Assembly (NCBI GenBank): GCA_963812015.1
Contig: CAWETI010000003.1
Location: forward strand, 224,001 to 288,000
Length of the DNA: 64,000 nt
Direction of reading: 5' to 3'
DNA from: an uncultured delta proteobacterium
Lineage (GTDB): Bacteria; Desulfobacterota; Desulfobaccia; Desulfobaccales; 0-14-0-80-60-11
A program made the position numbers and the translations under genes. Positions 11,201 to 16,360 of this stretch are shown piece by piece (position 1 is the stretch's first letter; every line of letters starts with the position of its first letter). A model generated the notes under the pieces. The model was given only the letters and a program-made list of their open reading frames with translations. It ran no database searches and was not told where the DNA came from.

Positions 11201-11575
11201 ATGAAATGTAAGGGTATAGTCTGCTTCTCAGTGCTGGTGCTCCTCTGCGCCCTGGCCACGGCAGCCCTGGCCGCGGACAAAGGGTTTCTGTGGAATGGGA
11301 CCCACTGGAAAGACATGAGCCCCGAACTCAGGGTGGCCTATGTCAAAGGCATCGGCAACATGGCGGATTTCGAAGTCGCCGCGCCTGGCGCCCCGGCCCC
11401 TTGTATCGCCAAGGGTTTTGTCGATGAACTAAAGACCAAAACCATTGGGCAAGTGATAGCTGAGGTAGATAAATACTATCAAGAAAATCCAGGCAAGATG
11501 GACATGCCGGTGATTGCAGTGATTTTACAGCGCTGTACCAAACTCTGCCCGGCCCCCACTGCGGAGAAGAAATAA
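11201..11575 (+). CDS. exported hypothetical protein (Rap1a-like helical pattern)
   Basis: Signal peptide, RBS AAGGAGG, 'AYVKGIGNMADFE..C..KTIGQVIAEVDKYYQENP..C..C'. Confidence 0.8.
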   Translation: MKCKGIVCFSVLVLLCALATAALAADKGFLWNGTHWKDMSPELRVAYVKGIGNMADFEVAAPGAPAPCIAKGFVDELKTKTIGQVIAEVDKYYQENPGKMDMPVIAVILQRCTKLCPAPTAEKK

Positions 11576-11964
11576 TGAGAGCCGCGGTTATCTTGATAAT
11601 GGTAGGCCTCATGGTCGGCGGCCTGGCCGGGGCGGCTCCGGCGGTGGAGACCGGTAAGGCCTTTCTCTGGGACGGGGTGCACTGGAAGCAGGTTTCCGAG
11701 GATGGCAAGGTCGGATATATCTTCGGCATGGGGAACCTGGCCGATTTCGAAGCCGGGGCATCCAAGGGCAGAAAGCCGGTCTGTCTTTCCCAGGCCTTCG
11801 TGGATGATTTAAAGACCAGAACCGTGATGCAGATCGTCCAGGCAGTGGATCAGTTCTACCAGGAGAATCCCGGCAAGTTGGACATGCCGGTGATCGAGGT
11901 GGTCCTCAGACGATGCACCAAGGTTTGTCCGCCGGAGACTCCGAAAGCGGGAGGTAAGCAATGA
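11575..11964 (+). CDS. exported hypothetical protein, paralogue of the gene at 11201
   Basis: TAATG stop/start overlap; 'FLWDGVHWK', 'GYIFGMGNLADFE', 'VDQFYQENPGKLDMPVI', 'RCTKVCP'. Confidence 0.8.
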   Translation: MRAAVILIMVGLMVGGLAGAAPAVETGKAFLWDGVHWKQVSEDGKVGYIFGMGNLADFEAGASKGRKPVCLSQAFVDDLKTRTVMQIVQAVDQFYQENPGKLDMPVIEVVLRRCTKVCPPETPKAGGKQ

Positions 11965-12194
11965 AACAGGCAGCTGTCTTGGTCATGGTTGCGGCGCTTT
12001 TGATGGGCGGCTGTTCCGGCTTCTCCAATACCACGCAGCGGACGGTGAGCGGCGCGGCCGTCGGCGCCGGCGGCGGGGCCCTCATCGGCTGGGCTGCGGG
12101 CTGTCCGGCCTGCGGCGCGGCCATCGGCGCGGGGGCCGGGGCTGCGGGGGGGTTTATTTACGACCAGTATGAAAAATCCCAGGGCCGGCCGTAA
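11961..12194 (+). CDS. glycine-zipper lipoprotein (OsmB/YMGG-like)
   Basis: Lipobox 'MGGC', GxxxG zipper 'GAAVGAGGGALIG..GAAIGAGAG'; ATGA overlap with the upstream stop. Confidence 0.85.
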   Translation: MKQAAVLVMVAALLMGGCSGFSNTTQRTVSGAAVGAGGGALIGWAAGCPACGAAIGAGAGAAGGFIYDQYEKSQGRP

Positions 12195-12391
12195 AGCCGC
12201 CCCCTCATTTTCCTTGTAACGGCATGGTGAACCGGTTATTCACCCCGATCTTTACCTTCTCCTCCCTCAGGTATACGGGTCCCTGTCCTTCCGGACCCCC
12301 GGGTCCAGGATCCTGGCAACTACAGTCGATTATGGGTAAAACCTGATGGTAGCCTGTGCTTGGGCATAGTAACAACCAAGGAGAGGATGCG

Positions 12392-12667
12392 ATGAAAAAG
12401 GTGGTCATCTTGTTGGTGGTAGTAACCCTGGTTTTTGGAGGGTGCTCCAGCATGTCCACTACGCAACAACGGGTGTTGAGCGGCGGCGCCATCGGCGCCA
12501 GCAGCGGCGCCCTCATCGGCTGGGCCGTGGGTTCGCCGGCGGCCGGCGCGGCCATTGGCGGCGGCGCGGGCCTCCTGGGCGGGTTTCTCTATGACCAGTA
12601 CGAGAAATATCGCGGTCGCACTAATCCCGCAAGCTCCCCGGTCTCCCCGCCGGCCGGGGCAGACTGA
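12392..12667 (+). CDS. glycine-zipper lipoprotein, paralogue of the gene at 11961
   Basis: Lipobox 'FGGC', 'TTQQRVLSGGAIGA..GALIGW..GGFLYDQYEK'; RBS GGAGAGG. Confidence 0.85.
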   Translation: MKKVVILLVVVTLVFGGCSSMSTTQQRVLSGGAIGASSGALIGWAVGSPAAGAAIGGGAGLLGGFLYDQYEKYRGRTNPASSPVSPPAGAD

Positions 12668-12884: not shown

Positions 12885-13079
12885 ATGAAAATGGCATTGA
12901 TTCTGCTGATGCTGGCGGCCTTGATCGTGGGAGCCTGCGCTGATACGAGCAGCTCCCAGTACCGGAGCCGCAATTCGGTCATCGATCTGGCCAATACCTG
13001 CGCCACCTGCGGCGCCTCCGTCAGGGACGATTATTTTGCCGGCAGCGCCTATAGAGCCGTGGGCCCCGGCAACTATTGA
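12885..13079 (+). CDS. small hypothetical lipoprotein with CxxC
   Basis: Lipobox 'VGAC', 'CATCG'; purine-rich RBS upstream. Confidence 0.6.
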   Translation: MKMALILLMLAALIVGACADTSSSQYRSRNSVIDLANTCATCGASVRDDYFAGSAYRAVGPGNY

Positions 13080-13189
13080 TCGAGGGACCGGCCAGGGCCT
13101 CGGGGATTTTCCACCCCCGGCCGCGACGCGCCTCGTCCCCCTCTACCGCCGGGCGCCAGACCTTGCTTCCTCACCGAGTAAGACTGACT

Positions 13190-13507
13190 TTATTGGCCGA
13201 ATAGGCGCTTCCAGACCCCCCTGGTTTCCGGCTGCGGCGCGGGCAGCCCCAGGTGCTGCCGGATCACCGCCTCCAGTTTATCTTCAGCCACATCGCCGCC
13301 TTCCACCACGATCTCTTCCCCCACCATCACCGCGGGAGCCGTCGGCAGGTCCATTTCGAAATATTCGTCCGTCTGGTACTCGGCGATGGGTTTGGAAGTG
13401 GTCTCGATCTCAACCTCAAACTTTTGGCCCAACCTGGGCATCATTTTTTGAAAGTGCTTTCATGGCTTGCCGTTAGGTTCGTTCATGAAAAACCTGACTT
13501 TTAGCAA
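13190..13507 (-). CDS. thioredoxin-like selenoprotein, NEPNGKPU motif (TsoC-like), U16
   Basis: RBS AAGGAGG, then TTG at 13507 (or ATG at 13513). MLKVRFFMNEPNGKP-TGA(13460-13462)-KHFQK continues in frame into the 13190..13444 ORF. SECIS-like hairpin follows. Confidence 0.85.
13415..13459 (-). promoter_or_regulatory. SECIS-like hairpin for the UGA at 13460
   Basis: GCCCA-GGT-TGGGC (13427-13439); loop starts after 25 nt from UGA; lower stem TTTCAAA/TTTGAGG. Confidence 0.65.
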
Positions 13508-13527
13508 TGTCATCCTCCTTTGCAGAG

Positions 13528-15264
13528 TTATTTCTTCGCCACTGCGGCCATGCGGGGCAGCATCAGCGAAGGGGGCAGATAATCCACCAGCCGCAAATTC
13601 TGGCACTCGTTGCCCTGGCCGTCCAGAAAGATCACCGTGGGCACGCCTTTGATGGCGTACTGGCTGAGCAATCGCTGATGCACCGGATTGCCTTTCTGGG
13701 TGAGGTCCACTTTGAGCATGACAAAATTCTGCTCCGCCAGTTTCACCACGTCGGGATGATGAAAAGTAATCTCGTCCAGCTCTCGGCAAGGGGTGCACCA
13801 GGTGGCGTAAAAATCGATGATTACCGGCTGGTGCGCGGCTTTGGCTTGGGCCAGCACTTGATCCGAGTACGGCTGCCAGGTGACGCCAGGGCCCCGCAAG
13901 GCCCAGGAGCCCACCAGGAAGGTGGCGAAAATCACCCCCGCCAGGGCCACGGCGGTCTTGAGCCACGGGAAACTCCGGAAAGTGGCCGTGGAGCGGTCCA
14001 GCCAACCCAGGTTTATGGCCGCCGCCAGGGCCACCCCGGCCAGGAGCGCCTGGCTTGCGGTTTCGGGCAGCAGGGGCCGGACAAAATACGCGGCCATGGC
14101 CAGGAGCACCCAGCCCATGAGTTTGCGCACCCAGAGCATCCATTCTCCCGACCGGGGCAGTCTCTCCAGGCTGCCGGAAAAGAGGGCCAGGATAAAGAGG
14201 GGCAACCCCAACCCCAGGCTCAGGGTGAAGAAGACCAGAAAACCCAGCCAGGGCGATCCCATGGAAGCCACCCAGGTTAAGAGTCCCAGCACGAACGGCC
14301 CGATACAAGGCGCCGCCACTACTCCCAGAGTCAGGCCCATAAACAGGCTGCCGAAGTAGCCGGCGTAGGATTTGGACGCCGCTTGCGTCAGGCTGCCGGG
14401 CAGGCGCAGTTCCCAAAAGCCGAACAGGCTGGTGGCAAAGAAGACCAGGATGGCGGCCACCGCCACCAGCACCAGGGGATTTTGCAGCAAGGACCCCATG
14501 AGCCCGCCGGTCAAAGCCGCCACCACCCCCAGGGCGGAGTTGGTGACGGCCAGGCCCCCCAGGTACAGGAGGCCATGGACCAGCAAGCGGCCCCGCCCCT
14601 GGCCGCTTTTGCCGCCAAAGTAAGAAACGGTGATGGGGATGATGGGATAGACGCAGGGGGTCAGGTTAAGGGCCATGCCGCCCATGAAGATGCCCAGCAT
14701 GGTCCAGACCATGGCCCAACCGGAAAGCAGGCCGGGGGCATAGGCCTCCGGCGCGTAATCGCACAACCCCAGGGGATCGCTGGCCACCGGCAGCCTCCGG
14801 CTCTGCCATTCCGGAAACCCCAGGGGATCGCGGTACACGTTTTTGTAACCCAGCTTGACGGCCACCCGGGCCGCCGAGTCGCTCCGGACTCAGGCCAGGC
14901 CTGCTCAGTAAAACACCACCAGCCGGTCTTTATCCGGCCCCAATAAGGCCGCCAGGCCACCTTGAGACCGCCACCGCGACCACCAGGTGGGCTCCATGGG
15001 GAAATTGATCGCCCCCTGGATATGGCCGCTGCGATACTCCCAATCCTGGCGGGTGTCCACCAAAAACAGCTTTTGGGAGTCCTGCCGGTAACGCTCGGCC
15101 AGTTCAGCGGTGTTGATCAGGCGGTAGCCGCCGCTCCTGGCTTCGGCCAGCACGTCTTCCCCGCTGGCCTCTTGGGGGATTATCGGACGGTTGACATGCC
15201 AGAGCACCCCCAGGGTAAGGGCAATGGCCACCAGGGCCAGGAGCGTGGTCCTGCGGTTTTTCAT
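13528..15264 (-). CDS. rhodanese-DsbD(beta)-thioredoxin fusion selenoprotein (TsoB-like), U120 and U125
   Basis: ORFs 14905..15276 and 13528..14865 share a frame and are separated only by two TGAs: VVFY-U-AGLA-U-VRSDSAAR. DsbD motifs 'LTPCVYP' and 'AAPCIGP'; thioredoxin 'WCTPC'. Confidence 0.88.
14857..14891 (-). promoter_or_regulatory. two adjacent SECIS-like hairpins for the UGAs at 14905 and 14890
   Basis: GAGTC-CGGAGC-GACTC (14876-14891), loop after 18 nt from the first UGA; GGCGGCC-CGGGT-GGCCGTC (14857-14875), loop after 21 nt from the second. Confidence 0.6.
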
Positions 15265-15281
15265 AACCAACCTCATGGCGC

Positions 15282-15734
15282 TTAAGACAACTTTCCTGCC
15301 CTTTGCAACTTCGAGATGAGGAAGGTTGCGCCTCTTTGGGACAGGCCGAGCTGCGCGGCCAAGTCTTGAGGAGTGAGGGCCCCTTGCCTTTGGGCCAGAG
15401 AGATTACCTCCTCCTCCAATTCATCCAGCCAGTCCTCGAAAAGGACCAGCAAGTCCGGGTCGGCGACGGCCATCAGTTGCCGGGATTGAGCCACCCGGTC
15501 CACCAGTTTCTGACACATATGCGTTGGATCGACACCTTCGTCCATGCATTCCGCCAGTCAGAGGTGCACCATGCTGGATACCTTATCGTCGCCGGCGCCG
15601 CCGATGAGATTGACGACGAAAATCAACCGATCTTCATCGGTAACCAAGGGTAGGATGGTTTTCAGCGTTGCGGCGATTTCGGCCATAGCTTGCGCCGGGG
15701 CCATGCTCTTCAGTATTTCTTGAATTCCGGCCAT
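15282..15734 (-). CDS. LULAEC-motif selenoprotein with C-terminal HTH-like segment (TsoA-like), U59
   Basis: RBS GGAGGTGA, ATG at 15734. MAGIQEILKS...SSMVHL-TGA(15558-15560)-LAEC-MDEG continues in frame into the 15282..15545 ORF. Confidence 0.85.
15510..15557 (-). promoter_or_regulatory. SECIS-like hairpin for the UGA at 15558
   Basis: Nested pairs CTGGC/GTCAG, ATGC/GCAT, TGGA/TCCA region and GAC-GAAGGT-GTC; loop G after 18 nt from UGA. Confidence 0.6.
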
Positions 15735-15756
15735 GGTGATGAATCACCTCCCCAGG

Positions 15757-16092
15757 CTAAAAAGTTTTCCTCTCGGCCAGCAAATCCGTGGCCAGATCTT
15801 TCAACGCCGCTAAAATCTCCAAGATGCGGCCGTCGGCGATTTCGTAATATACAAAGGGGCCGCTCCGCTCCACCTTGACCAGGAGGGCCCGCCGCAATTC
15901 CTTCAGGTGGTGGGAGACCAGGGGCTGCGACAGATTCAGTGCTTCGACGATCGCCGAGACGGATTTCCTGCCATGATTGACGCACAGCAGAATCCTGAGG
16001 CGGTTTTCATCTGACAAACTCTTGGCCACAAAGGCGACCGTCTGGAGGTATTCCTCCAACGGCATCAGTGGCTCACGACCCGGTGGTGCCAA
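15757..16092 (-). CDS. ArsR/SmtB-family transcriptional regulator (TsoR-like)
   Basis: 'KSLSDENRLRIL', 'SVSAIVEALNLSQPLVSHHLKELR', 'ERSGPFVYY'. TTG at 16092 has RBS GGGAGG; alternative ATG at 16065. Confidence 0.93.
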   Translation of the reverse strand: MAPPGREPLMPLEEYLQTVAFVAKSLSDENRLRILLCVNHGRKSVSAIVEALNLSQPLVSHHLKELRRALLVKVERSGPFVYYEIADGRILEILAALKDLATDLLAERKTF

Positions 16093-16124
16093 GGTGACCT
16101 CCCCATCTCCAGGAGCTCGGCTGG

Positions 16125-16172
16125 GATAATCATATAAATAGATATTTATCTGTTTATCTACTTGGCTGTCAA
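16125..16172 (-). promoter_or_regulatory. promoter with overlapping 16-2-16 inverted repeat (putative ArsR operator)
   Basis: Minus-strand TTGACA at 16167-16172. GATAATCATATAAATA-GA-TATTTATCTGTTTATC (16125-16158, 14/16 symmetric) covers the expected -10/+1. Confidence 0.75.
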
Positions 16173-16268
16173 GGGAAAAATGCAGGAACTTTGTTTCGGG
16201 CAGGTCGTTAAGAATGGCGAAAAGCGGTTAGAGCGTTTGCTAAAATTCCTTCTGATTGCTGGTTTTTT

Positions 16269-16360
16269 AAATCCCCCTAAATCCCCCTTTTCCAAAGGGG
16301 GACTTTTAAAGGAATTTCGCTAAGTTCCCCCCTTTGGAAAAGGGAGGGTAGGGGGGATTT
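16269..16360. repeat. palindromic repeat family B (ATCCCCCTAAATCCCCCTTT..AAAGGGGGACT...GGGGGATTT)
   Basis: Double-hairpin inverted element; a close copy lies at 51938-52027. Confidence 0.8.

Follow-up and report, generated by a model that had tools for sequence, protein, structure and literature searches.

The minus strand of a 64,000-nucleotide stretch of contig CAWETI010000003.1, from an uncultured delta proteobacterium, probably Desulfobaccales-like (the whole of this stretch is the window, and positions are counted from its first letter), carries at 13528..15264 a gene of 578 codons plus a TAA stop that, by sequence comparison, is tsoB, lying in a complete tsoR-tsoA-tsoB-tsoC operon. Its predicted product, TsoB, is a fusion of a rhodanese domain having a U-x4-U active-site loop with a DsbD-beta membrane core and a thioredoxin domain, as assigned by translation, Pfam, and the family model NF045694. 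The sequence evidence supports decoding of both in-frame UGA codons of tsoB as selenocysteine (Sec, U). The best explanation of the data taken whole, which we regard as probably correct, is that TsoB is made by Sec decoding, possibly with a pair of selenocysteine insertion sequence (SECIS) elements, and that it presents a periplasmic Sec pair driven by a DsbD-type relay. The TsoB family has already been described, and nothing distinguishes this copy from the known family; it is an ordinary member.

The 578-residue product matched the TsoB model NF045694 at 1010.3 bits (cut-off, 805) over residues 6 to 575, and a six-frame search of the genome gave 998 bits. Besides this full-length match above the cut-off, the gene shares with the family the U-x4-U motif with two Sec residues, the three-domain architecture, and the tsoR, tsoA, and tsoC neighbors. 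An earlier reading of this DNA made from its sequence alone (the sequence-only reading) had implied that the arrangement was new; the family is in fact curated (NF045694) and appears in a table of a 2026 review (PMC13188914), which lists TsoB as NF045694, with the motif UxxxxU and two Sec, and credits it to Haft & Tolstoy 2025 (mSystems 10:e0141724). The same paper is cited in the available text on BSepDB (PMC13326102). That review was the sole match in a literature search combining rhodanese, DsbD, and selenocysteine. The passages available from a paper on Geobacter ExtI (PMC5877670) describe a rhodanese-like protein, ExtH, in a selenite/tellurite-linked cluster and give no link to TsoB.

Decoding of the two in-frame UGA codons

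Translation of 15264..13528 (minus strand) with TGA read as U gives 578 residues whose sole departures from genetic code table 11 are U120 (UGA1, 14905..14907) and U125 (UGA2, 14890..14892). The local text is LVVFY-U-AGLA-U-VRS...KLGYKNVY...GFPEW; the sequence-only reading had given the loop with TGA at both positions, as the translation has it, and had left the minus strand unnamed. Read on the plus strand, this span gives an unstructured translation. Of 26 orthologues, 21 share the ATG located 119 codons 5' of U1, and another has GTG at this position. The Pfam rhodanese domain (PF00581; residues 54 to 155, 14800..15105; E value, 2.5e-14; 54.0 bits against a gathering score of 22.2) covers both TGAs and is complete only when both are read.

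The full Sec machinery is present in the same genome. The genes selA (608.5 bits), selB (368.5 bits; about 7 kb past the end of the window), and selD (372.7 bits) all scored above their cut-offs, as did a tRNA-Sec (74.7 bits against a cut-off of 47). Because selD itself has one in-frame TGA (L040, G000:C2:1058596-1059513), the selenophosphate synthetase of this genome is a selenoprotein as well.

We surveyed the state of the loop in three collections of loci. Across 401 sampled genomes of the phylum (Thermodesulfobacteriota), the TsoB cut-off was passed by 30 matches, distributed over 26 genomes, and every one of these matches had exactly two internal TGAs; in one genome (G360) the tsoB gene is present in two pieces. 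Weaker matches in this sample corresponded to the DsbD part only (query from about 154 to 183 on), mostly without stops. Counting one locus per genome, the loop was U/U at all 26 loci of the phylum sample. It was likewise U/U at all 80 loci among the best 80 of at least 483 relatives on genome contigs (79 recognized by pattern and the 80th, L067, by eye). Among the best 80 loci on metagenome contigs, 73 bear the loop, which is U/U in 70, C/C in one (L122), and S/S in two (L137 and L139); the seven left outside the count comprise six without the loop and L180, which starts inside it and shows the second U only. Pooling the three collections, which may overlap, so that the loci are not all independent, gave 179 loop-bearing loci: 176 U/U, 1 C/C, and 2 S/S, the last two identical. 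The sequence-only reading had proposed aligning homologues for the distribution of C/C, U/C, and U/U forms; a mixed state, U/C or C/U, was seen neither among these 179 loci nor among the protein clusters listed.

Full-length orthologues with Cys at both positions are rare: among the matches listed from a set of 5.8 billion proteins were three clusters, P0004 (loop FYC-AGPD-C-VRS), P0005 (FYC-TGQT-C-VRS), and P0006 (FYC-ADLS-C-SRS), all of them single proteins of 578 to 581 residues that scored 853 to 929 bits on the TsoB model. The sole Cys/Cys tsoB found as DNA, on a metagenome contig (L122:1501-3018), has TGC at both positions and is 91% identical to P0005. The linker that joins the rhodanese domain to the first transmembrane helix (TM1) has an added C-x2-C (CTEC) in two of the three Cys/Cys orthologues, P0004 and P0005, but not in the U/U forms.

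Other departures from the U/U state were also observed. The two S/S loci (L137:1501-3231 and L139:1501-3231, on metagenome contigs and identical over all 4731 bases) have TCA (Ser) at both Sec positions of tsoB, with the remaining loop and both hairpins described below unchanged, while their tsoA and tsoC retain TGA; two G-to-C changes falling exactly at the two Sec codons look non-random. The protein P0007 (541 residues, 856 bits on the TsoB model) is missing about 37 residues, including the entire U-x4-U loop (...LGPDK is followed directly by VYRDP...), which may be a real deletion or a gene-calling artefact. This genome also has a degraded tsoB-like fragment in two identical, oppositely oriented copies (L004:1543-1680 and L005:1504-1641; G000:C2:293365-293547 and C2:808813-808995), with 83% identity to TsoB residues 116 to 161, a stop codon in place of the Tyr before U1, and a broken upstream part; a Cys C-x4-C rhodanese gene adjoins each copy.

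Were the TGAs true stops, one would expect here a truncated gene for the rhodanese and, starting from GTG 14865, a second gene for a DsbD-like protein, or else a pseudogene. Database annotation has this appearance: among the matches listed, 110 of 120 database relatives were called without the rhodanese domain (109 of these having 434 to 458 residues), and the close relatives among such short calls start just past UGA2, at the position of GTG 14865. Gene callers turn a Sec gene into just such short, rhodanese-less calls, and public protein sets mostly carry tsoB as a truncated "DsbD/CcdA." A GGAG does lie about 17 nucleotides (nt) 5' of GTG 14865, but this is too distant for a usual ribosome-binding site. 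Several observations argue that the TGAs are read through: the Pfam rhodanese domain spans both of them, all 26 orthologues have the same residues between and after them, the Cys/Cys orthologues are single proteins, the machinery for Sec is complete, and the frame is kept in the 176 U/U loci. The sequence-only reading had set separate rhodanese and DsbD genes in homologues against its own proposal of one fused gene; a gene boundary replacing the TGAs was seen in 0 of 179 loop-bearing loci, and the single fused gene stands. We consider true stops extremely improbable.

An alternative genetic code, with TGA as Trp or Gly, was rejected: orthologues have Cys at both positions, and 9 of the 26 orthologous frames terminate in TGA at the expected C terminus, so TGA serves also as a stop in these relatives.

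Domain architecture and a possible electron relay

TsoB begins with a hydrophobic helix (residues 4 to 25, after K2, R4, and R5; 15190..15255), a predicted signal anchor or signal peptide. The rhodanese domain follows, and then the DsbD_TM core (residues 187 to 398; 14071..14706; Pfam E value, 9e-42), which contains two buried Cys, C204 in TPCVYP and C320 in APCIGP; beyond the DsbD_TM match, two further helices reach residue 457. The C-terminal part is a gamma-like thioredoxin domain (Pfam Thioredoxin_7; residues 462 to 548, 13621..13881) with a WCTPC motif (C490 and C493). None of C204, C320, C490, and C493 varies among the 26 orthologues. The N-terminal segment, the DsbD-beta core with its two motifs, and the WCTPC thioredoxin had all been named in the sequence-only reading, and translation and Pfam recovered each of them.

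With E. coli-type DsbD, TsoB shares the beta core with Cys in two P-C motifs and the C-terminal CxxC thioredoxin domain. However, it scored 242.5 bits on the E. coli-type DsbD profile NF001419, below the cut-off of 330, and only profile positions 168 to 566 matched (to residues 185 to 569). The immunoglobulin-like alpha domain is absent (profile positions 1 to 167 are unmatched), and in its stead TsoB has a two-Sec rhodanese with its own membrane anchor; replacement of the alpha domain by the rhodanese had been proposed earlier and agrees with this match. Judged by its sequence, TsoB combines a DsbD-like beta-gamma module with a different domain in place of alpha; it is not a DsbD.

Both soluble domains very probably face the periplasm, according to predicted topology. 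An AlphaFold model from the 26 orthologues, used for helix order only, has the helix at 4 to 25, the rhodanese domain, helices across 182 to 457 grouped as eight transmembrane (TM) segments, and the thioredoxin domain. Lys and Arg occur at the N terminus and in the loops after TM1, 3, 5, and 7, with none in the short loops after TM2, 4, and 6; by the positive-inside rule, this distribution would put the rhodanese and thioredoxin domains on the periplasmic side, as in DsbD. The periplasm-facing rhodanese of the sequence-only reading thus fits one anchor plus eight core helices and the K/R pattern of the loops. Prediction of a complex between the rhodanese and thioredoxin domains, made with the natural Cys/Cys orthologue alignment A3, scored 0.00 and weighs neither way.

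Within the rhodanese domain, U120 is paired in alignments with the catalytic Cys of solved rhodaneses and of Cdc25 (6mxv, 3d1p, and Cdc25B). The TsoB loop is two residues longer than theirs, and U125, which is Cys in the rare Cys/Cys orthologues, lies in the additional part: the HMMER alignment opens a two-residue gap in the solved rhodaneses opposite L-A-U of the TsoB loop, whose spacing is U-x6-R. R127 and S128 of the loop are invariant in the orthologue alignment. Sulfurtransferases have a six-residue loop (C-x-x-G-x-R/T), and Cdc25 and Acr2 have a seven-residue loop (C-x5-R); the TsoB loop fits neither pattern. The sequence-only reading took YC.G..C.RS as the normal form of the rhodanese loop, which holds for a C-x4-C subgroup, the Cys/Cys orthologues P0004 to P0006 among them, and fails for ordinary solved rhodaneses and Cdc25, where Cys is found at the first position only and the loop is two residues shorter.

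The C-x4-C subgroup includes exported rhodaneses of the same bacteria, which share FYC-x4-C-x-[RL]S...KLGY with TsoB and are 32 to 41% identical to its rhodanese domain; unlike TsoB, they carry no DsbD fusion, and both of their loop positions are Cys. Examples are a paralogue in this genome (G000:C3:1333606-1334055; FYC-GFVK-C-TRS), a DoxX-rhodanese (P0072), and a triple rhodanese (P0008). The single-Sec rhodanese-like selenoproteins in the table of PMC13188914 (forms 1 to 4; NF041203, "LYCAU") resemble TsoB in having a rhodanese fold whose Sec is located in, or close to, the active-site loop, whereas they have one Sec (UxxS, UxxG, or CxU) and no DsbD fusion, and TsoB has two Sec four residues apart in a longer loop. 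TsoB matched NF041203 weakly (E value, 9e-8). Animal selenoprotein L has a UxxU redox motif reported to form a diselenide, and so is like TsoB in that a single redox motif holds two Sec separated by a few residues; unlike TsoB, it has a thioredoxin fold, a eukaryotic SECIS in the 3' untranslated region, and U-x2-U spacing, and it is not membrane-bound.

In DsbD, electrons flow from thioredoxin to the beta, then the gamma, and finally the alpha domain. By analogy, cytoplasmic reducing power (thioredoxin) would pass to the C204/C320 pair and on to the C490/C493 pair, which in turn would maintain Sec120 and Sec125 in the reduced state. Sec120, placed where rhodaneses have their canonical nucleophile, would attack a chalcogen or metalloid substrate in the periplasm (possibly sulfane sulfur or polysulfide, Se or Te species, or As), Sec125 would resolve the adduct to form a Se-Se or Se-X-Se bridge, and the thioredoxin domain would reopen that bridge. 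We give this scheme, from relay through substrate attack to bridge, an even chance of being right. As the sequence-only reading also suggested, the U-x4-U loop could then be a terminal electron acceptor that cycles through a diselenide. The all-or-none occurrence of U/U, C/C, and S/S states supports a pair-wise function; the pattern does not specify the chemistry.

Three points weigh against this picture. First, the AlphaFold model is modest (mean predicted local distance difference test score [pLDDT], 65.4; predicted template modeling score, 0.46; pLDDT below 50 in much of the membrane core), so the helix count is soft and the distance between the two Sec residues is not readable from it. Second, diselenide reduction potentials are much below those of disulfides, and for a thioredoxin-type CxxC the reduction of a Se-Se bond may be uphill if the loop does not put strain on it. 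Third, the ArsR/SmtB-type regulator encoded by tsoR fits metal(loid) binding as well as it fits catalysis or chalcogen reduction.

This last point bears on another explanation, in which the Sec-x4-Sec loop is a binding site: two selenolates would chelate a soft metal(loid) (Hg, As(III), Cd, Cu(I), or Te) in the periplasm for sequestration, hand-over, or sensing, and the DsbD module would merely keep the selenolates reduced. Apart from the ArsR/SmtB-type metalloregulator of the operon, such a site is consistent with the two positions always changing together, as expected of two ligands, and with a loop two residues longer than that of catalytic rhodaneses. However, U120 occupies the very position of the rhodanese nucleophile, and neither R127 nor S128 varies; an entire transmembrane electron relay would be costly for a passive site; and TsoR, its sequence read by eye, contains one Cys and shows no obvious alpha5 site rich in His. 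We therefore regard a pure binding site as unlikely.

We also consider it quite unlikely that the rhodanese domain serves as an adaptor for the reduction of periplasmic proteins (their disulfides, sulfenic acids, or persulfides), much as the alpha domain of DsbD does for DsbC, DsbG, and CcmG. An adaptor would suit a DsbD architecture with its N-terminal periplasmic domain swapped, and the E. coli periplasmic rhodanese PspE is able to engage in thiol-disulfide chemistry; yet the operon encodes no exported partner, TsoA and TsoC having no N-terminal hydrophobic leader by eye, and nothing observed explains the use of two Sec for protein-disulfide reduction.

Hairpins behind the UGA codons

Bacterial SECIS elements are conserved hairpins located shortly 3' of the UGA, with a G-containing apical loop. 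Two minus-strand hairpins are candidates for this role in tsoB. Hairpin 1 (14876..14891; GAGUC, a 6-nt loop, and GACUC), the candidate SECIS for UGA1, starts 13 nt past that codon and contains the GA of UGA2. Hairpin 2 (14858..14874; 6 bp, loop CGGGU), the candidate for UGA2, starts 15 nt past it (14 nt in the 7-bp single-sequence fold).

Among the 26 orthologues, hairpin 2 was paired in 100% of alignment cells, with compensatory changes at pair 45-57 (19 GC, 5 AU, and 2 CG) and pair 48-54 (25 CG and 1 UA); the best 80 of at least 483 genome loci added a UA type at pair 45-57 and showed a few mismatches. In hairpin 1, four of the five pairs never vary, and 98.5% of cells were paired. When the partners were slid by 1 to 3 columns, pairing of the two hairpins combined fell from 99.3% to 23 to 63%. 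Codon choice points the same way. Measured at 102 invariant residues with four- or six-fold-degenerate codons, synonymous entropy averaged 1.38 bits over the gene; it was 0.0 bits at V126, which is GTC in 26 of 26 orthologues, 0.24 at A132, 0.39 at R133, and 0.24 at V134, and just two other codons in the gene were at or below 0.25 bits. Such low values at V126 and at 132 to 134 argue that an RNA-level constraint on this stretch is real.

An outer stem around both hairpins, present in the single-sequence fold, was rejected: no more than 71% of its cells are paired, and about half of the sequences do not form its inner pairs.

Other results count against a SECIS role. Hairpin 1 shows no compensatory change, has one pair broken in 2 of 26 sequences, and has a mismatch in about 5 of the best 80 genome loci. 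Neither hairpin folded better than shuffled sequence (z scores, +0.84 and -0.44), and an Rfam scan of 13000 to 16300 returned no family match, only chance-level hits (E value of at least 2.3). Finally, in the Cys/Cys locus L122, hairpin 2 is intact while hairpin 1 has one mismatch and one wobble pair; the presence of a hairpin is thus not strictly tied to a UGA. L122 appears to have changed from Sec to Cys recently, with a SECIS remaining from its earlier state.

The two hairpins may represent one SECIS per UGA, acting in succession, as UGA2 cannot be read until hairpin 1 has melted; we see this as a serious possibility that stops somewhat short of being probable. More tentative, and in our view rather doubtful, is the combined proposal that the two Sec function only as a pair, forming a periplasmic diselenide center on a DsbD-type relay, and that two UGA-matched SECIS elements are read successively, the first holding part of the second UGA.

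The tso operon and its surroundings

The genes lie in the order R-A-B-C on the minus strand, and the neighbors of tsoB all scored above the cut-offs of their family models; the operon has four Sec codons. The first gene, tsoR (15757..16092), encodes the ArsR/SmtB-type regulator (NF045707; 165.9 bits, cut-off 115); its true start may be the ATG at residue 10, as the NF045707 profile begins at residue 14. The name of this model, Dbac_1936_reg, may point to Desulfomicrobium baculatum. Next, tsoA (15282..15734) encodes a LULAxC-motif selenoprotein with one TGA (15560..15558; NF045695; 224 bits, cut-off 170) and a C-terminal winged-helix match (HTH_24; E value, 1.2e-5). Downstream of tsoB, tsoC (13190..13513) encodes a small NEPxGxxU-motif selenoprotein with one TGA (13462..13460; NF045708; 151 bits, cut-off 45), in which a Thioredoxin_3 match is weak (E value, 0.089). 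Of the 26 orthologous loci, 21 had tsoR and tsoA and 22 had tsoC, and a contig end cuts at least two of the loci in which a gene was missed.

The inverted repeat ATAAATA-TC-TATTTAT (16134..16149, minus strand), just 3' of a TTGACA (16172..16167), is a candidate TsoR operator on sequence grounds. A perfect AT-rich repeat of the same kind with 7-nt arms (ATATAAA...TTTATAT) lies 5' of tsoR in 8 of 22 orthologous loci.

Elsewhere in the window, 11201-12667 on the plus strand contains a tandem pair of paralogous small open reading frames (ORFs), 11201..11575 and 11575..11964, that share ...FLW.G.HWK.... After this pair come 11961..12194 and 12356..12667, small glycine-rich ORFs that are lipoprotein-like and similar to each other; 12356..12667 has a weak YiaD-type glycine-zipper match.

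The four-selenocysteine tso operon is widespread in relatives of sulfate reducers, with at least 483 relatives in species-representative genomes. TsoB is a natural bacterial case of two Sec five codons apart, and it could show how SelB and SECIS elements handle closely spaced UGAs.

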